Assembly: GCA_018660265.1 (NCBI GenBank)
Contig: JABJKS010000057.1
Span: 66,506-130,505 of the forward strand
Source: Rhodospirillaceae bacterium
Lineage (GTDB): Bacteria > Pseudomonadota > Alphaproteobacteria > GCA-2731375
Direction: 5' to 3'
DNA length: 64,000 bases
Below the pieces are notes generated by a model, which made no database searches, was not told the DNA's origin, and worked only from the letters and a program-made list of their open reading frames with translations. Below are positions 1,603 through 54,332 of the stretch, in pieces. A program made the translations under genes and the position numbers. The number at the start of each line of letters is the position of its first letter. Within the stretch, counting starts at the first letter, position 1.

Positions 1603-1809
1603 AGTCCGCTATTTTTACCTTTATTTCGGACGATGTCTATTTTGCCGAGGTTGTGGATAGTATTCCCAATCAACAATTCGCAGCAATGGAGATGGATAAA
1701 AAGGTTAATATTTTGTTAAATTTGGATTGACGGTCCACCACAAAAAAAATTAACCTTATTTGGTGAGGGCATTGAACGAACCTTTTTAAACAAAATGGGA
1801 GAGCATAAA

Positions 1810-2343
1810 ATGAAATTTGTTACAAAAATGGGGACAACTTTTGCCCTTATCATGGGCTTAGTATTCACTGTGATGAACACATCGCAAGCTGCCGTTGTTG
1901 TAGATCCTGGCACCGGCGGTTCCTACACCTTCTTCTTCGACGCGCTGGGACCAATCACCGGGATCTCTGGCTTCCCTGGTGAGACTACATGGTCGATGAC
2001 AGTAGGTAGCACTTCAAGCCTAAGCTTTGCGACTGCTACCGATTGCTGCACAGTTGGCGATGAATTTGGTCTGATTTTTGATGGTGCCGCTGTTGCCTGG
2101 GATACAGAAACAACAACAGGGGGCGGCTTTTTTGAAGGCAGCATGTCCGATCTGCTGTTGACAGCAGGGACCCATACATTTGGATTAGTCCTGACTGCGG
2201 CTTGTTGTTCTTCCGGCGGTGCTTTCATGGAGTTTGGTACTGCAACTGCTGTTCCTGTTCCAGCGGCTTTACCCCTGTTTGCGGGTGGTCTTGGTTTCCT
2301 AGGTTTCATGGGCTGGCGTAAAAAGCGGGTTGCAGCCGCTTAG
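1810..2343 (+). CDS. Secreted VPLPA-CTERM (PEP-CTERM-like) sorting-domain protein
   Basis: N-terminal signal peptide (MKFVTKMGTTFALIMGLVFTVMNTSQA). C-terminal VPVPAALPLFAGGLGFLGFMGWRKKR tail, i.e. a VPxPA motif, a hydrophobic helix and a basic cluster. An RBS GGGAGAG precedes the ATG at 1810, and the local GC is lower than the flanks. Confidence 0.7.
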   Translation: MKFVTKMGTTFALIMGLVFTVMNTSQAAVVVDPGTGGSYTFFFDALGPITGISGFPGETTWSMTVGSTSSLSFATATDCCTVGDEFGLIFDGAAVAWDTETTTGGGFFEGSMSDLLLTAGTHTFGLVLTAACCSSGGAFMEFGTATAVPVPAALPLFAGGLGFLGFMGWRKKRVAAA

Positions 2344-10405: not shown

Positions 10406-11659
10406 TTAGCGACTGTGAATTTTCACCGGCAAGGACCTGATGCCCCGGATGAAGTTGGAATAGAGCCGCACAGGCGGGCCCATGACTTCAATGTCCAAAT
10501 CACGGGCCAGGATTTCCTGCCACAGAATTTCCAATTGCAGCTCCGCCAAGCGATCACCGACACAGCGGTGAATGCCGGCCCCAAAGGAAAGGTGGCGTCG
10601 CACCTTGGCCCGATCAATGATGAACTGATCCGCGTTCTCAATCGCCTTTTCATCACGGTTGCCCGAGAGATACCACATCACCACCTTGTCCCCCTTGGCG
10701 ATGGTATGACCGCTAATTTCCGTCTCCTGCAACGCTGTGCGGCGCATATGGATCACCGGGGTCTGATAGCGAATGACTTCGTGCACCATGGGTTTGACCA
10801 GGCTGTGATCGGCCCGCAGCTTTGCCAACTCGCCCGGATTTTCCTGAAATGCCAACAACGCCCCACTCATGGAATTGCGCGTGGTATCGTTGCCCCCCAC
10901 GATCAACAAAGCGATATTGCCAATAAATTCCCGTGGCGACATGTTCGCCGTTGCCTCTGTGTGCGCCATCATGGAAATCAGATCAAAGGTCGGCTCGGCG
11001 GCCTCCCGCTCTTTCCAAAGCGCACCGAAATACTCGGCCATTTCGTAGAGATGCTTCATACGCTCTTCCTGGCTTTTGATCACGGCATCATCAGAGCCGA
11101 TGTCGGCAATCGCCACATCGGACCAAAAGCTCAACATCCGCCGATCCTCAAATGGAAAATCGAACAACGTCGCCAGCATCATCGCCGTCAGCTCGGTCGA
11201 GACCAGATCAACCCAGTCAAAGGTCTCGTCGCGGGGCAGGCTATCTAGATTTTCTGCCGTGCGCTGGCGGATCAGGTCTTCCATATTCTTCAGGTTAGTG
11301 GGTGCGACAATGGGCGCAACGGCCTTGCGCTGGGCCGTATGACCAGGTTGATCCATACGAATGAAATTCGGCAGCTCCTCACCCTGGGGCTGGTCATCAA
11401 CCCGAATGCCGCCCATGGCAGAGGCAGAAGAAAATGTGCCGTGGTCCAATTCCACCTGCATCATTTCGTCATAACAGCTAAGCGACCAATAGGGTCCATA
11501 GGGGCTGTCCATACAGCGATGGACCGGTGCTTCCCGCCGTAGCCGGGCAAAGACATCATGCCAGGCATCATTCTGATAGAGGGCGGGGTCGGAGACGTCT
11601 ATGTCCGCAAGCGCCCGCGTATGTAGATCGCTCAAGTGAGCTGCTTCGACCATAACCAC
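10406..11659 (-). CDS. Cytochrome P450
   Basis: Heme-binding loop FGAGIHRCVGDRLA and the EXXR motif (EVIRY). Confidence 0.9.
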   Translation of the reverse strand: MVMVEAAHLSDLHTRALADIDVSDPALYQNDAWHDVFARLRREAPVHRCMDSPYGPYWSLSCYDEMMQVELDHGTFSSASAMGGIRVDDQPQGEELPNFIRMDQPGHTAQRKAVAPIVAPTNLKNMEDLIRQRTAENLDSLPRDETFDWVDLVSTELTAMMLATLFDFPFEDRRMLSFWSDVAIADIGSDDAVIKSQEERMKHLYEMAEYFGALWKEREAAEPTFDLISMMAHTEATANMSPREFIGNIALLIVGGNDTTRNSMSGALLAFQENPGELAKLRADHSLVKPMVHEVIRYQTPVIHMRRTALQETEISGHTIAKGDKVVMWYLSGNRDEKAIENADQFIIDRAKVRRHLSFGAGIHRCVGDRLAELQLEILWQEILARDLDIEVMGPPVRLYSNFIRGIRSLPVKIHSR

Positions 11660-11766: not shown

Positions 11767-12519
11767 CTATTCAGGCCCTTCGCAGCTGAGGGCAAGATGC
11801 AGCGCCGCCGGTGAAATAACGCAACGGGCCAGATTGGCACGCCACAAATCGGCACCCTTTAAATCAGCAAAGGATAAATCTGCTTCGATAAGATTAGCCT
11901 CGGTCAGAGAGGCGGAGGACAGGTTGCTGCCTGACAAATTGGCCCGGCTCAAATCCGCGCCGGTCAGGTCCGCGCCAACCAATTTAGCACCCCGCAGCCG
12001 GGCACCGGACAGTTTCGCATTGGCCAAACTGACATGGCTTAAATCCCGGCCCTCTAGATTTACATTGGCGAGGTTTTCATCCGACAAATCCGCACGGATA
12101 CCATCACTGTCGCCCTGTAGCCATAGATGGTGGGAGGTCAACGTCCGCAACAAACGCCGATTGCGTTCGCCATTCGCTTTCTTTTGCTCTGCTTCAACGA
12201 TGTTTTTCTCGATGATGCGCGTATCAAGGGGTAATTGTGCCCGCCCCAGAACCACGCGCAACTGTCGTTGCGCATGCTTCATGTCATAAGCTTCAAGCTC
12301 ACCTGTGGTGAGATTGCCGCCCATGTGAAAGCGTACTTCGTACAAATATTCAATTAGCTTGGGTTGTTTCTGGTTAGAAGCATCAGTTTCTGCCTCGGCA
12401 GCACACAAAGCTGCCAGTTCCGCCGCGATTTCCTCGGGCGGGGCATAATTGCTGTTATGGCCGATACCAGGTTGCCATTCGGCAACCTGATCGTCAAATT
12501 CTCTACTGGTTGTGGCCAT
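11767..12519 (-). CDS. Pentapeptide-repeat protein with a ~150-aa N-terminal domain of unknown function
   Basis: The C-terminal ~100 aa are tandem A(D/N)LSG pentapeptide repeats (ADLSDENLANVNLEGRDLSHVSLANAKLSGARLRGAKLVGADLTGADLSRANLSG...). A GGAGG RBS precedes MATTSREF. GC is about 53% against about 60% in the flanks. Confidence 0.7.
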   Translation of the reverse strand: MATTSREFDDQVAEWQPGIGHNSNYAPPEEIAAELAALCAAEAETDASNQKQPKLIEYLYEVRFHMGGNLTTGELEAYDMKHAQRQLRVVLGRAQLPLDTRIIEKNIVEAEQKKANGERNRRLLRTLTSHHLWLQGDSDGIRADLSDENLANVNLEGRDLSHVSLANAKLSGARLRGAKLVGADLTGADLSRANLSGSNLSSASLTEANLIEADLSFADLKGADLWRANLARCVISPAALHLALSCEGPE

Positions 12520-12640
12520 ATAACGCGCCTCCATCTGCATATCAGGCACCGAAAGCCCGTCTGAATGCTCAAAATATGCTTCACATTATGACTACGAACC
12601 ATAGTTTCATCATATTAACAAAGGCTTAGTTTGGACCGGG

Positions 12641-47261: not shown

Positions 47262-47306
47262 CACAACATATTGTCACCGTCCCGTTGGCGCACACAATAT
47301 GTTGTA
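47262..47306. promoter_or_regulatory. Two NrdR boxes, ACAACATATTGT (47263-47274) and ACAATATGTTGT (47294-47305), with 31-bp centre-to-centre spacing upstream of nrdJ
   Basis: Read directly from the sequence. The two boxes are exact reverse complements of each other and match the NrdR-box consensus (acaCwAtATaTwGtgt core). They lie about 80-120 bp upstream of the nrdJ ATG. Confidence 0.6.
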
Positions 47307-47384
47307 GATTTTGTTAACCAACGTCGACGGCGACAAATAACGAAAAATTACGATTTAGCGAAAGTACGAGGGGCAAGAGGGCAA

Positions 47385-50300
47385 ATGAAAATATCACGGC
47401 GCTTTACGGAACAGGGTCAATCACCATACGCAAACATCGAATTCCGCATGGCGAGCAGTGAGATCAGAAATCCTGACGGTTCTATTGTTTTCAAGCTGGA
47501 CGATATTGAAGTTCCCACCAGTTGGTCCCAGGTTGCCTGCGATATTCTGGCACAAAAATACTTCCGCAAGGCCGGCATTCCCGCCGCCCGCAGGCGGGTG
47601 CCCGAAGACGACGTGCCGATCTGGCTGTGGCGTGAGGAAGCGGATGAAGCCGCCCTCGCCTCCCTGCCTATCGACGAACGCGATACCCACGAATCCTCGG
47701 CCCGCCAGGTTTTTGATCGACTGGCCCGGACCTGGACCTATTGGGGCTGGAAGGGCGGCTATTTTGATGCCGAAGAAGACGCGATCACCTTTTGTGATGA
47801 ATTGAGCTTCATGCTGGCCCAGCAGATGGCGGCGCCGAACTCACCACAATGGTTCAACACCGGTATGCATTGGGCCTATGGCATCGATGGCCCCAGCCAA
47901 GGTCATTTTTTCGTCGATCACAAGAATGGCGAACTACAGGCCTCCTCCTCCGCCTATGAACGGCCCCAGCCCCATGCCTGCTTCATCCAATCCTGCGCTG
48001 ATGATCTGGTCAATGAAGGCGGCATTATGGATCTGTGGGTGCGGGAAGCACGCCTGTTCAAATACGGCTCTGGCACCGGCTCTAACTTCTCCCACATCCG
48101 TGGTGCGGATGAGCCGCTTTCGGGGGGTGGAAAATCCTCCGGCCTGATGAGCTTCCTGAAAATCGGCGACCGTGCCGCCGGTGCCATCAAATCCGGTGGC
48201 ACCACACGACGGGCTGCGAAAATGGTCGTGGTGGATGCAGATCACCCGGACATTGAAGACTACGTCAATTGGAAAGTGGTGGAAGAGCAGAAGGTCGCCG
48301 CACTGGTTGCAGGTTCCCGCATCACGGCGAAAAACCTGCAAGCGATCATGGCGGCCTGTCAGGAAGGCGCGGGCGAGAATGAGCCTGGCGTCGATGAACA
48401 GGGTGAAGCCCATGACGGACGCTTTGATCCCACCCGCAACCCAGCCCTGAAAACCGCCCTGCGCGGCGCACGGGCTGCGATGATCCCGGAAAACTATGTT
48501 CGTCGCACCATAGACTTTGCCCGCCAGGGCTATGTCGGCATGGACTTCCCGGTCTTTGATACGGATTGGGATTCGGATGCTTATTTGACCGTTTCGGGGC
48601 AGAATTCAAATAATTCCGTCCGTGTCACCAACGATTTTCTGAAGGCTGTTGAAGCGGATAGCGATTGGATCCTTTATCGGCGCAAGGACGGCGCGGTTTC
48701 AAAAACCATCAAGGCGCGGGACCTATGGGAAAATATTGGCCATGCGGCCTGGGCCAGTGCCGATCCGGGGCTGCAATACCATTCCACCATCAACGAGTGG
48801 CATACCTGCCCCGAGGGCGGTGAGATCAGGGCCTCAAACCCCTGCTCTGAATATATGTTCCTTGATGATACGGCCTGCAACCTGGCCTCCATCAATCTGA
48901 TGACCTTCCTGTCCGAGGACGGCAGTTTTGATGTCGGCGGTTTCAGGCATGCCACACAGCTGTGGACCATGGTGCTGGAAATCTCGGTCATGATGGCACA
49001 GTTCCCGTCCAAAGAGATTGCCCAACTATCCTATGATTATCGCACCCTGGGTCTGGGCTTTGCCAATATCGGTGGCTTGTTGATGGCTCGTGGCATGTCC
49101 TATGACAGTGAAGAGGGCCGCTCCCTTTGTGCTGCCATCACGGCCCTGATGACAGGCACCGCATATGCGACATCCGCCCTTATGGCCAAGGAAATGGGCA
49201 CCTTCGCCCGCTATGAGGACAATGCCGACCATATGCTGCGGGTGATCGCAAACCATCGCCACGCCGCCATGGGGGCCCGCGAAGGCTATAACGGGTTGGA
49301 GATTAATCCAGTGCCGTTTAAGGCTGTCGATTGCCCCGATGCAGCCCTGGCCCGAGCCGCCGCCGCCGCCTGGGACGAAGCCCTCGAACTGGGTGAAATG
49401 CACGGTTTCCGGAACGCCCAAGCCACGGTCATTGCCCCCACGGGCACCATTGGCCTGGTCATGGATTGCGACACGACCGGTATTGAGCCGGATTTCGCCC
49501 TGGTTAAATTCAAGAAGCTGGCGGGTGGCGGTTATTTCAAAATCATCAACCGTATGGTCCCCTCCGCCTTGCGCACCCTGGGTTATGAAGACGACCAGAT
49601 CGATGCCATCATCAATTATGCCCTCGGCCATGCCACTCTGGATGGGGCGAAATACGTGAACCACGAAAGTTTGATTGCAAAGGGCTTCACCGCAACACAG
49701 ATCGAAAAGATTGAAGCCGCGCTGGAGAGCGCATTCGATATCAAATTCGTCTTCAATAAATACACCCTGGGCGAGGAATTCTGCCGCGAGATCCTGGGCT
49801 TCAGCGACGATCAATTGAACGATCTGTCTTTCAATATGTTGGGTGAATTGGGCTTCAGCAATAGCGAGATTGAGGACACCAATATTTATTGCTGTGGTGC
49901 CATGACCCTCGAAGGCGCGCCCGACCTGAAGGACGAGCATCTGTCGGTATTCGATTGCGCCAACCCGTGCGGTCGGATCGGCAAACGCTATCTTTCCGTG
50001 GACAGCCATATCAAGATGATGGCGGCGGCCCAACCGTTCATATCGGGTGCGATCTCAAAAACCATCAATATGCCCAATTCCGCCTCGGTTGAGGATTGCA
50101 AGCGGGCCTATCGGGACTCCTGGCGTTTGGGTTTGAAAGCCAACGCATTGTATCGTGATGGCTCAAAACTATCGCAGCCGCTTTCATCCGCCCTGTTCGA
50201 TGACCTGGGCGATGATGTAGAGGCAGAAGACAGCCTGGCCGCAGCCCTAAGCGCACCTAAAATTCAGCCCCAGGTCGTGGCCGAACGGGTGGTGGAGCGG

Positions 50301-51143
50301 ATTATTGCCGAGCGGCGGAAGCTGCCCCAACGGCGCAAAGGCTACACCCAGAAAGCCGTTGTCGGCGGGCACAAGGTCTATCTTCGAACCGGTGAATACC
50401 AGGATGGCTCGTTAGGTGAAATCTTCATCGATATGCATAAAGAGGGCTCTGCCTTCCGCTCGTTGATGGATAGTTTCGCAATTGCCATCTCTCTCGGTCT
50501 GCAACATGGCGTGCCCCTGGATAATTATGTGGATGCGTTTACCTTTACCCGGTTTGAACCCAACGGCATTGTCGAAGGTAACGATGTCATCAAGATGTCC
50601 ACCTCGGTATTGGATTATCTGTTCCGTGAATTGGCCGTGTCCTACCTGGGCCGTAACGAACTGGCCCATGTTGATCCCGAAGACCTACGCCCCGATACCC
50701 TGGGCGCGGGACTATCACAGGAAGAAGCGGAAGCCGACAGCCAGGAAGAAAAACTGGTCGCAGCCCATAACAGCGTCGCCTCCCACGGCTTTGTCCGCGG
50801 ACGTCATCTGACGGTCCTGACGGGTGGCAACAATGGTGCCTCAATTGGCAGCACAAGCAACGGTGCCTCCAACGGCAGCAGCAATAGCGTGAACGGCGGC
50901 GCGAACAGTGGCGCAAACGGTGGTGGGGGCCTGGCCACCGCTACAGCAAGTGCTGCCGTCGCAGCGGTCACTGTTGATCCGGTTATCAGAGACGAAGTGG
51001 ATCAACGCCTGGATCAAATTCGTGAAGCCCGCATGAAGGGATATGAGGGCGATGCCTGTGGCGAATGCGGTAACTTTACCCTGCTGCGCAACGGCACCTG
51101 CATGAAATGCGATACCTGCGGCGGCACATCAGGCTGCAGCTAA
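47385..51143 (+). CDS. nrdJ: Class II (adenosylcobalamin-dependent) ribonucleoside-diphosphate reductase
   Basis: About 1252 aa. Active-site thiyl Cys region ([16 protein letters not shown]). C-terminal Cys-rich zinc ribbon ([27 protein letters not shown]). A GAGGG RBS precedes the ATG at 47385. Confidence 0.9.
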
Positions 51144-51226
51144 AGAATTAGAGATTGCCCGGCACGACAGTCGGGCAGGTTTATTGTTGCGTAAATGAGT
51201 AGCGTATAAGCCTCCCTGTTGAAACT

Positions 51227-51268
51227 GGGGTGCGGCCGTCCAAAATGGGCCCCCGCACCCCTTTTTTG
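51227..51268 (+). terminator. Rho-independent terminator of nrdJ
   Basis: GGGGTGCGG...CCGCACCCC stem followed by TTTTTTG. Confidence 0.7.
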
Positions 51269-51324
51269 TCCGATTTTCCTGCCATTGGGCGATTAACGCC
51301 TCGTTTAGGCAAATATTCTATGTT

Positions 51325-52509
51325 GTGGTCATGGCAAACATGGCGACAAAACCGGTTAAAAAAAGGGCACCCGAAGGGCGACTGCAGGTGCGCGAGGCCA
51401 GCAATGCCGAGCAGCGCCATAAAATACTGAAGTTCCGCAATCAGGTGATGGTTGATGAATTGGGTATTCAACCCGATGTCGCCCTCGATAAGGATCGCGC
51501 GGATCAGGCCGCCCGCGACAAAGCCTCCCGGCACCTGTTCCTCAGCTCGAACGGTGCCGTCGTCGGCTGTTTACGCCTCCATACCTCGGACATGATTGCC
51601 CCGACCCAGGACATGAGCCACATCTACGGCCTTGACGCTTTTGTGGATTTTTCGCCGAAATATCTTTCTTTTACAGATCACATGGTCATCGGCGAACGCT
51701 GGCGCGGCAGCCATGCGCCGGCTTTGATGACGGCAGCAGCCTTTAAATTGGCGCGCAGCGACGGGGCCCATTTCGATTTCACCTATTGCCCGCCGGCCCT
51801 TGTGGGATTGTACGAAAAAATCGGCTATCGCACCTATAGCAGCGAATATCTGGAGGCTGATGCGGGTCTGCAAATCCCCATGATCCTGGTGATGGACGAT
51901 ATCGACCATCTGCAGGCCATCAATTCACCTTTCGCCAAATTGGCAGTGATGCAAAAACCAGACCTGGGCGTTGCCAAGTGGTTTCACGCTAATTTTCCGG
52001 AGGCCGCAAATCGGCCCGTCAAAGCCCTGCGTGATGAGCAGAATTTGTGGCAGTACCTGACCCAGCAATTGCACCAAAACCCTCTGCACGGGGTGCCTCT
52101 GTTCGATGGCTTGTCCTACGATGAGGCGCGACGGTTTTTGCGCAACGCCACGACATTGGTGCTGCGCAGTGGAGACCGTCTGGCCCGCATCGACGCTATG
52201 AGCGATGAGGCCTTTGTCATGCTGTCTGGCAATGTAGAAGTCCGTGATCGTAACGGCGCGATCGTGGCACGTTTTGATAAGGGTGCCGTGGTAGGTGAAA
52301 TCGCCTATTTGGCAGCCATGCCGCGCACGGCGGAGATCGTGGTCACAAACGACGCTGAAGTCCTGGTGTTAACCCAGGCCACATTCAAAAACATCATGGC
52401 CAAGGATCCCGAAACGTCCAACAAACTGCTGTTTAATATGACCCTGATACTGGCCGAACGCCTGAAAGCTACGTCTCAGATTCTGTCCAACTATACCCAG
52501 GGCGCATAG
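51325..52509 (+). CDS. Fusion of a GNAT-family N-acyltransferase (Acetyltransf_5, OlsB/FeeM/LuxI-like) to a C-terminal cyclic-nucleotide-binding domain
   Basis: N-terminal ~230 aa carry HKILKFRNQVMVDELG and ...HLFLSSNGAVVGCLRL motifs typical of N-acyl amino-acid synthase / OlsB-type GNATs. The C-terminal ~120 aa form a CAP-type effector domain (GAVVGEIAYL...PRTAEIV). The start may be at 51331 or 51340. Confidence 0.7.
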   Translation: MVMANMATKPVKKRAPEGRLQVREASNAEQRHKILKFRNQVMVDELGIQPDVALDKDRADQAARDKASRHLFLSSNGAVVGCLRLHTSDMIAPTQDMSHIYGLDAFVDFSPKYLSFTDHMVIGERWRGSHAPALMTAAAFKLARSDGAHFDFTYCPPALVGLYEKIGYRTYSSEYLEADAGLQIPMILVMDDIDHLQAINSPFAKLAVMQKPDLGVAKWFHANFPEAANRPVKALRDEQNLWQYLTQQLHQNPLHGVPLFDGLSYDEARRFLRNATTLVLRSGDRLARIDAMSDEAFVMLSGNVEVRDRNGAIVARFDKGAVVGEIAYLAAMPRTAEIVVTNDAEVLVLTQATFKNIMAKDPETSNKLLFNMTLILAERLKATSQILSNYTQGA

Positions 52510-52526: not shown

Positions 52527-54332
52527 CTAATCTTCGGGCGCAGCCGGTTTCGGGGCTTCGGGCAACACGGTACGGATATGCAATTCCCGTAGATGCTTGC
52601 TATCTGCCGGTGCCGGTGCACCCATCATCAAATCCTGGGCCTGCTGGTTCATGGGGAACATGATGACCTCACGGATATTGGGCTCGTTCGCCAGCAACAT
52701 CACCATGCGGTCAATGCCAGGTGCGATGCCACCATGGGGCGGAGCACCGAATTTCAGGGCGCTGAGCATACCGCCGAAACGGTTTTCCACCTCCGAATTA
52801 TCATAGCCGGCGATCTCAAATGCCTTGTACATGATGTCAGGCAAATGGTTCCGAATGGCACCGGAGGCCAGCTCATCACCGTTGCAGACGATATCGTATT
52901 GATAGCCTAGAACCTCCAGGGGATCGTCGCCATTCAGGGCCTCAAGGCCACCCTGGGGCATGGAGAAGGGGTTGTGGGAGAAATCCAGCTTTTGCTCAGT
53001 CTCGCTCCACTCATACATGGGATAATCAACAATCCAGCAAAACCGGAAGGCATTCGGTTCAACCAACTCCAGATCCCGGCCTACCTTCAGGCGCGCCTGA
53101 CCTGCCAGGGCAGCGGCCTCACCTTCCTTGCCGGCGGCAAAGAACAGGCCGTCGCCATCACCAGAACCGGTCAGTTCCTTTAGCTTTGCCATGCGCTCAT
53201 CATCAAGGCGGTTGGCAATGGGGCCCTTACCGCCGCCATCGACGAAGCTGATCCAGCCCATGCCGGCAGCACCCTCGTCGCGGGCCCAGTCGTTCATCTT
53301 GTCAAAGAAGCTGCGGGGCCGTGCAGCGGCACCAGGAGCGGGAATGGCGCGCACGACGCCGCCGCCCGCCACCAATTTGGCGAATAGTTGGAAGTCCGAG
53401 CCGTCAAAGACTTCGCTGACATCGGAAATTTCCGTCGGGATCCGCAGATCCGGTTTGTCGTTACCGTATTTCAACATGGACTCGGCATATGGAATGCGCG
53501 GGAACGGCATGGGCGTGACCTCACCGCCATTGGCGAATTCCTCAAACACCCCGTGCATGACTGGTTCTACCGCCTGAAAAACGTCTTCCTGCTCGACAAA
53601 GCTCATTTCCAGATCAAGCTGATAAAACTCGCCCGGACTACGGTCGGCGCGGGCATCTTCATCCCGAAAACAAGGTGCGATCTGATAATAACGGTCAAAA
53701 CCGGCGATCATGGCCAACTGCTTGAACTGCTGCGGGGCCTGAGGTAGAGCATAGAATTGACCGGGGTGCAGGCGGGAGGGCACCAAAAAATCACGGGCAC
53801 CTTCAGGCGAGGATGCGGTCAAAATAGGTGTCTGGAAGTCAATAAAACCCTGCGCTTCCATACGCCTGCGGATGGATGAAATGATCTTGCTGCGCAGAAG
53901 GATATTGTCATGCATTGCAGGACGGCGCAGATCAAGGAAGCGATAACGCAAACGGGTTTCTTCGGGATAAATCTGATCGCCAAAGACCTGTAGCGGCAAT
54001 TCCTCTGCCGCTGAAAGCAGCTCCAGACCGGCGATCCGAATTTCGATCTCGCCCGTTGGCAGATCTTTGTTGATCGTCTCCGCCTCGCGCGCCAAAACCG
54101 CGCCGTCAATGCGCAGCACGCTTTCCGGACGGACCGCTTCCGCAGCGGCAAAATATTCGCTATCTGGCTCAATGACGCATTGGGTGACACCGTAATTATC
54201 CCGCAAATCAATGAACAGCAGGCCGCCATGGTCCCGCTTTCGGTGCACCCAGCCGGAAATTCTTGCGGTCTGGCCCACATCCGTCGAGCGCAGGGCGCCA
54301 CAGGTATGGCTACGATAAATATGCATGGTCAC
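52527..54332 (-). CDS. aspS: Aspartyl-tRNA synthetase
   Basis: Class II aaRS motifs. N-terminus [12 protein letters not shown]. The start is at 54332 or 54326. Confidence 0.9.

Follow-up and report, generated by a model that had tools for sequence, protein, structure and literature searches.

A large family of predicted GNAT N-acyltransferases fused to a cyclic-nucleotide-binding domain, with a conserved nrdJ-aspS locus in marine alphaproteobacteria

The window analyzed here is the whole 64,000-nucleotide stretch of DNA from a Rhodospirillaceae bacterium (assembly GCA_018660265.1, contig JABJKS010000057.1). Between nrdJ and aspS it carries a gene for a two-domain protein in which a GNAT-type acyltransferase module is followed by a cyclic-nucleotide-binding (CNB) domain. 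The features of this locus, in window coordinates, are as follows.

47271-51143, plus strand: nrdJ, class II (B12-dependent) ribonucleotide reductase, the upstream neighbor
51155-51178, plus strand: first terminator-like hairpin, directly 3' of the nrdJ stop codon (consensus scan)
51227-51267, plus strand: intrinsic-terminator-like hairpin with a GC stem, GGGGTGCGG...CCGCACCCC plus six T residues (called from sequence and fold, and kept in relatives)
51325-52509, plus strand: coding sequence of the two-domain protein, including the stop codon
51382-51894, plus strand: FeeM/OlsB/LuxI-like GNAT N-acyltransferase core, residues ~20 to 190
51895-52020, plus strand: helical extension, residues ~191 to 232 (alignments; AlphaFold2 helices with pLDDT of 82 to 94)
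52021-52089, plus strand: interdomain linker predicted at low confidence, residues ~233 to 255 (AlphaFold2 pLDDT below 50 for residues 234 to 255)
52090-52407, plus strand: CNB beta-roll domain of the CAP/PKA-R type, residues ~256 to 361
52294-52335, plus strand: phosphate-binding cassette G324-E325-I-A-Y-L-A-A-M-P-R334-T335-A336-E337 (PKA alignment)
52408-52500, plus strand: long C-terminal helix, residues 362 to 392, equivalent to the CRP C-helix (AlphaFold2 secondary structure)
52527-54332, minus strand: aspS, the convergent downstream neighbor

The open reading frame list gives a protein of 394 aa that starts at a GTG. Reading the sequence directly, we found an ATG at 51331 that yields 392 aa, and because a database protein 100% identical to the window protein (P0001) is also 392 aa long and most homologues start with MAN, this ATG is probably the true start. 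A 181-nt spacer separates the gene from nrdJ, and both hairpins lie between the nrdJ stop codon and the start codon. Judging from its sequence, the second hairpin (51227-51267) would end the nrdJ transcript upstream of the GNAT-CNB gene. Taken together with the convergent orientation of aspS, the spacer hairpins suggest that the gene is its own transcription unit, and the preliminary description, which had placed the gene alone between nrdJ and aspS behind a terminator, was right about both the flanks and the hairpin. Beyond aspS lie rnd, a glyoxalase-family gene, and ppx. The predicted fold of the spacer (51144-51330) had an energy of -76.3 kcal/mol (z = -5.3 relative to shuffled controls), and a block within it (GTAGCGTATA..CCTCCCTGTTG.AACT.GGG.GCGGCC, leading into the terminator) is kept in loci whose proteins are 53 to 72% identical to that of the window. 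No Rfam family matched in or around the GNAT-CNB gene, spacer included; the block may belong to the nrdJ 3'-UTR as a conserved element, or it may be a small RNA derived from the terminator. Separately, NrdJ carries a Gly/Ser/Asn-rich low-complexity insert (window positions ~50790 to 50910) just N-terminal of its Cys-rich tail.

The N-terminal two-thirds of the protein had been assigned to the Acetyltransf_5 clade, partly on motifs, and FRNQVMVDELG, VGCLRL, and GEIAYLAAMPRTAEI are indeed all present in the translation. At the level of the family the assignment held: Acetyltransf_5 (PF13444) matched 22 of 28 aligned homologues at an E value of ≤0.01, FeeM (PF21926) matched 5 of the 28, and distant members pass both cutoffs (P0131, for example, scores 45.5 bits against FeeM). 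For the window protein taken alone it fell just short, at 21.8 bits versus a cutoff of 22.4 for PF13444 and 17.5 bits versus a cutoff of 27 for PF21926, and we count these subthreshold scores against the reading favored below. Membership in the OlsB, TIGR03694, LuxI, and Pat families was considered and rejected, the profile scores being below the cutoff or absent. For the PDB profile search we used the N-terminal half, a full-length profile being dominated by CNB matches. It retrieved the acyl-homoserine-lactone (AHL) synthase TofI (E = 0.001), and R38, D65, and R84 aligned with conserved positions of the LuxI family. FeeM itself was not reached by sequence, either from the family profile or from the best FeeM-scoring member.

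An AlphaFold2 model, built from a 28-sequence alignment, had a mean pLDDT of 77, mostly above 90 in the GNAT core, and a pTM of 0.61. It contains the extended GNAT fold of the LuxI/FeeM type. In fold searches, which had no OlsB structure to compare, the closest fold to the GNAT module was that of FeeM, aligned over 173 residues that include the N-terminal region specific to LuxI and FeeM. The general base in the catalysis of FeeM and LuxI is a Glu on strand beta4. When the family was aligned with RpaI, the position of this Glu was hydrophobic; the absence of a conserved acid here also counts against the favored reading. Along the catalytic strand that bears E-x-S-R in LuxI-type enzymes, the majority of family members have [TS]-S-R and the window clade has F-T-D-H, a sequence difference that suggests a clade-specific substrate or mechanism. 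The core is followed by the helical extension, with conserved residues D192, H195-L196, S201-P202-F203, W219-F220, and F224-P225.

The C-terminal half is a more straightforward case. Pfam cNMP_binding (PF00027) matched residues 280 to 361 with 53.5 bits (E = 2.3e-14; cutoff, 27.5) and also matched all 28 homologues, and the best PDB sequence matches were the PKA regulatory subunits, PKG, SthK, and MloK1. The model shows an eight-stranded beta-roll and then the C-helix, and the match to the CRP fold covers 132 residues, C-helix included; by analogy, this helix is a possible dimerization element. In PKA-R-type CNB domains, the Gly, Glu, Arg, and Ala of the phosphate-binding cassette contact the ribose and the cyclic phosphate. 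The window cassette, GEIAYLAAMPRTAE, aligns residue for residue with GELALMYNTPRAAT of PKA RII-alpha, and all four of these residues are kept. The earlier call of a complete C-terminal CNB domain is therefore borne out by a score above the cutoff and a canonical cassette, and with the family-level GNAT matches and a structure prediction in which both domains appear, the domain call as a whole is correct. The relative arrangement of the two domains was poorly predicted (the pTM and the linker pLDDT given above), and this too we count against the favored reading.

A word-indexed search returned 32 full-length homologues, most of them from metagenome-assembled genomes (MAGs) of uncultured marine Rhodospirillaceae or other alphaproteobacteria, and repeating such a search with a diverse profile yielded no members beyond those known. 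When the N-terminal profile was used by itself in an exhaustive HMM search, it gave 2,692 representatives (clusters at 50% identity) at an E value of ≤1e-3, 1,747 at ≤1e-10, and 418 at ≤1e-30. Among the best 149 representatives, 123 have a CNB-type C terminus and 106 are 370 to 425 aa long; the other 26 are ~220 to 260 aa long and lack the CNB. Fusion of the two modules is thus the rule in this large family and no rarity. The preliminary description had allowed that the architecture might already be common and annotated; common it is, but the annotation is generic only, with names such as "cyclic nucleotide-binding domain-containing protein," "predicted GNAT family N-acyltransferase," and "CRP-like cAMP-binding protein," and no NCBIfam model claims the family. 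Two stand-alone short forms that we looked up are complete genes inside contigs, and one such form is 33% identical to window residues 20 to 225. The ~220-aa members contain the helical extension and end right after it, which indicates that the extension is part of the acyltransferase module and that the CNB is an add-on. One stand-alone form (L107) was checked and does not occupy the nrdJ-aspS slot. The family is found in lineages from marine, freshwater, and sediment habitats and in anaerobes. At five loci (L020, L022, L046, L048, and L100), MAG or metagenome copies of the gene are broken into two open reading frames that overlap or adjoin; these are frameshifts or assembly errors, or possibly pseudogenes.

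Conservation extends over both modules. The near-invariant residues of the GNAT core are R38, D65, R84, F106, R127, F152, E164, G167, and R169; apart from R127, which 94 of 101 sequences retain, all of these are more than 85% conserved in 108 representatives, as are D192, S201, and P202 of the extension. In the cassette, the same 108 representatives retain the Gly in 102 cases, the Glu in 82, the Arg in 69, the Thr or Ser in 63, and the Ala in 70. This pattern of sequence conservation points to purifying selection on both modules.

The window clade, which is marine and alphaproteobacterial, has the conserved order nrdJ - X - aspS (minus strand) - rnd - ... ppx - ppk, where X is the GNAT-CNB gene, and the nrdJ-X-aspS arrangement is still kept at the locus of P0037, a homologue with only 33% identity. 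Since the neighbors are housekeeping genes, this order is better explained by long vertical inheritance than by a functional operon. One Rhodospirillaceae MAG (GCA_964344935.1) has tandem copies in the slot, P0020 and P0018, each 58 to 59% identical to the window protein (L004, 6662-9182, and L006, 7983-10503). No cyclase, acyl carrier protein (ACP), or O-acyltransferase gene adjoins the GNAT-CNB gene of the window or its counterparts at the syntenic loci, an absence that we also count against the favored reading.

Elsewhere in the family, the surroundings are richer. We scanned metagenome contigs with an alignment subset (74 loci), called open reading frames, and typed the neighbors with Pfam and locally built HMMs. 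A SAM methyltransferase was fused or directly downstream at ~24 of the 74 loci, and a PF14518 "iron-containing redox enzyme" of the heme-oxygenase-like diiron family lay directly upstream at ~18; the two contexts never co-occurred. A neighbor-joining tree built on the N-terminal module placed the nrdJ-slot loci in one coherent clade and the heme-oxygenase-like diiron (HDO) loci in another, and the methyltransferase loci fell into a few coherent clades. Long variants comprise five GNAT-CNB-SAM-methyltransferase fusions and one GNAT-CNB-B12-radical-SAM (B12-rSAM) fusion, and in anaerobes a PAS histidine kinase, GNAT-CNB, and B12-rSAM stand in a row, together with a polysaccharide deacetylase. 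Such anaerobe genes at L007/L029 (8001-10900) and L028 (8001-10847) have a degenerate cassette, B12-rSAM fused or 3', and the PAS histidine kinase 5'; the L028 cluster is located among sporulation genes. The diiron gene is translationally coupled upstream of GNAT-CNB at L059, L066 to L069, L072, L074, L077 to L082, L086, L090, L094, and L101, and the pair looks like an uncharacterized two-gene biosynthetic cassette. Apparently, then, the product made in these sister subfamilies is further processed by a methyltransferase, a diiron enzyme, or a B12-rSAM enzyme. Nothing in the 64-kb window matched the methyltransferase or the diiron partner.

It had also been proposed that the gene may be functionally linked to a VPLPA-CTERM protein encoded near the other end of the window, whose gene we place as follows.

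1795-2343, plus strand: PEP-CTERM-like open reading frame for a small secreted protein that has a signal peptide and the sorting tail ...VPVPAALPLFAGGLGFLGFMGWRKKR (VPVPA...GWRKKR)

This protein scores 19.7 bits against a Pfam cutoff of 20.7 and weakly matches the flocculation protein PepA; its gene has no exosortase among its neighbors, which encode aminotransferases, an amidohydrolase, a TPP enzyme, a P450, and a pentapeptide-repeat protein. We rejected the link: the two genes are 49 kb apart, the window protein has no match to the exosortase-associated acyltransferase model TIGR03694 (E ≤ 1), and no exosortase or PEP-CTERM partner adjoins the GNAT-CNB gene in any syntenic locus. TIGR03694 is a distant homologue of the family, matching 52 of 77 members weakly (best E = 3.7e-11). 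In the same part of the window, a cytochrome P450 gene and a pentapeptide-repeat gene adjoin each other (10406-11659 and 11767-12549, both on the minus strand), and the P450 resembles the solanimycin enzyme SolI, with a score of 425 bits versus a cutoff of 850.

We favor the reading that the protein is an N-acyl-amide synthase of the FeeM/OlsB/LuxI type that is regulated allosterically by a cyclic nucleotide through its CNB domain, and we give this chain as a whole somewhat better than an even chance. The enzyme would be soluble and built of two modules, the GNAT with its helical extension and, across the linker, the CNB. Homology with FeeM, OlsB, and LuxI suggests that the GNAT module most likely acylates the amino group of an amino acid or a related amine, taking the fatty acyl chain from acyl-ACP (or acyl-CoA), so that the product would be an N-acyl amide of the signal or lipid type. 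To judge from the cassette, the ligand of the C-terminal CNB would be a cyclic nucleotide (cAMP or cGMP). Comparison with Pat, PKA, and CRP makes it plausible that binding gates the enzyme, with the CNB switching the acyltransferase on or off via the linker and probably, like CRP, through a dimer formed by the C-helix; the level of the second messenger would then directly set the output of N-acyl product. A bolder version holds that the family makes a new class of N-acyl amide signals, such that in abundant, uncultured marine alphaproteobacteria intracellular cAMP or cGMP directly licenses an extracellular, quorum-sensing-like lipid signal and relatives methylate or oxidize the product. This version is speculative, and we regard it as doubtful.

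Alternatively, an N-acyl amide could be made by a protein whose CNB senses neither cAMP nor cGMP and either binds another ligand or serves only in dimerization or as a scaffold. CNB folds of the NtcA, CooA, and CprK types bind other ligands, and the cassette Arg is lost in about one-third of the wider family, so that the fold can serve there without a cyclic nucleotide; this loss is a further point that we count against the favored reading. It is unevenly distributed, however. The canonical cassette is present in 16 of 22 members of the methyltransferase class, in 13 of 18 of the diiron class, and in none of 3 of the B12-rSAM class, all three of which lack the Arg. In the nrdJ-aspS clade, every one of the 13 members that could be scored has the canonical G-E...R-[TS]-A, down to 33% identity, and this suggests that cyclic nucleotide binding is most likely in the branch of the family that contains the window protein. 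Moreover, the best sequence matches of the CNB half, listed above, are genuine cAMP or cGMP binders. For the window protein we therefore consider a CNB that ignores cyclic nucleotides improbable.

The enzyme could instead catalyze the first step of aminolipid synthesis, as OlsB and GluB do, making a lyso-aminolipid from 3-hydroxyacyl-ACP and placing membrane remodeling under cyclic nucleotide control. PF13444 is the domain of the aminolipid N-acyltransferases, and aminolipids are abundant in marine alphaproteobacteria (PMC11631085). Among 77 family members, 53 matched the OlsB model weakly (best E = 4e-10). Against this, the window protein itself scored 11.9 bits versus a cutoff of 350 for that model (NF052554), an OlsA/PlsC-type O-acyltransferase was adjacent in no locus examined, and the closest fold, in a comparison that included no OlsB structure, is FeeM, which is not an aminolipid enzyme. 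The partners found in relatives (methyltransferase, diiron oxidase, and rSAM) resemble enzymes of small-molecule tailoring rather than of a second acylation. They favor a small-molecule product over a membrane lipid, which for the partnerless window clade is an extrapolation from sister clades. We judge the aminolipid alternative to have a low probability, comparable to that of the preceding one.

Less likely still, and in our view quite unlikely, is a cyclic-nucleotide-regulated protein acyl- or acetyltransferase, i.e., a domain-swapped functional analogue of mycobacterial Pat. The Pat model (NF058543) gave 31.3 bits versus a cutoff of 460, and only the CNB aligned (query residues 259 to 369 with Pat residues 3 to 115). 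The GNAT module, for its part, aligns with FeeM over 173 residues that include the region of R38, D65, and R84, and Acetyltransf_1 reached only E = 0.025 with the window protein. A divergent, cyclic-nucleotide-gated AHL synthase of the LuxI type can be set aside as very improbable, given that Pfam Autoind_synth matched neither the window protein (E ≤ 1) nor the 28 aligned members (E ≤ 0.01), that F-T-D-H stands in place of the LuxI beta4 E-x-S-R, that no LuxR-type gene is adjacent, and that the fold is matched better by FeeM than by any AHL synthase.

Compared with known systems, the favored enzyme, a cyclic-nucleotide-regulated N-acyl-amide synthase, would combine familiar parts in an unfamiliar way. 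FeeM and related N-acyl amino acid synthases (PF21926; PDB 2G0B), with ~10% sequence identity to the window protein, are single-domain enzymes without a sensor, whereas the GNAT-CNB family adds a helical extension of ~40 residues and, mostly, a C-terminal CNB. LuxI-type synthases (TofI, LasI, and RpaI) have a LuxR partner and E-x-S-R; the window family has neither and carries a fused sensor. OlsB pairs with an O-acyltransferase, unlike the window-family genes at the loci examined, and its equivalog score is far from being reached. We know of no described aminolipid enzyme with a CNB domain. The PF13444 domain type is nevertheless common to OlsB, GluB, GlsB, and the window family, and because PF13444 enzymes form amide bonds from acyl-ACP, the expected chemistry is the same, acyl-ACP plus an amine giving an amide (PMC11631085). 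The closest regulatory parallel is mycobacterial Pat (Rv0998/MSMEG_5458), whose CNB domains are recognizably related to those of the window family. In Pat, however, the CNB is N-terminal and the GNAT is an acetyl-CoA-dependent protein lysine acetyltransferase, while in the window family the CNB is C-terminal and the GNAT is of the FeeM/LuxI type; the opposite domain order and different GNAT clade stated in the preliminary description thus stand. To our knowledge, Pat, which is activated by cAMP, is the only studied case in which a CNB covalently controls a GNAT enzyme. In searches of the open literature, we came across no work on fusions of FeeM or PF13444 domains to a CNB or on diiron/GNAT/methyltransferase cassettes.

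Both domains are well known, and Pat provides a precedent for their combination; what is new is a large, generically annotated, and apparently untouched family as far as experiments go. The modular logic will not surprise a signaling specialist, but the family merits experimental attention because it is large, comprises distinct tailoring subfamilies, and can be tested directly, and it allows ready comparison of forms competent for cyclic nucleotide binding with forms whose cassette is degenerate. Since the subfamilies have distinct tailoring partners, the family probably hides several unknown natural products. As far as we know, synthases of N-acyl amino acids, aminolipids, and AHLs are treated as constitutive enzymes that are controlled at the level of transcription. 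If the enzymes described here are gated, they would provide a direct posttranslational link from second-messenger state to lipid or signal production.
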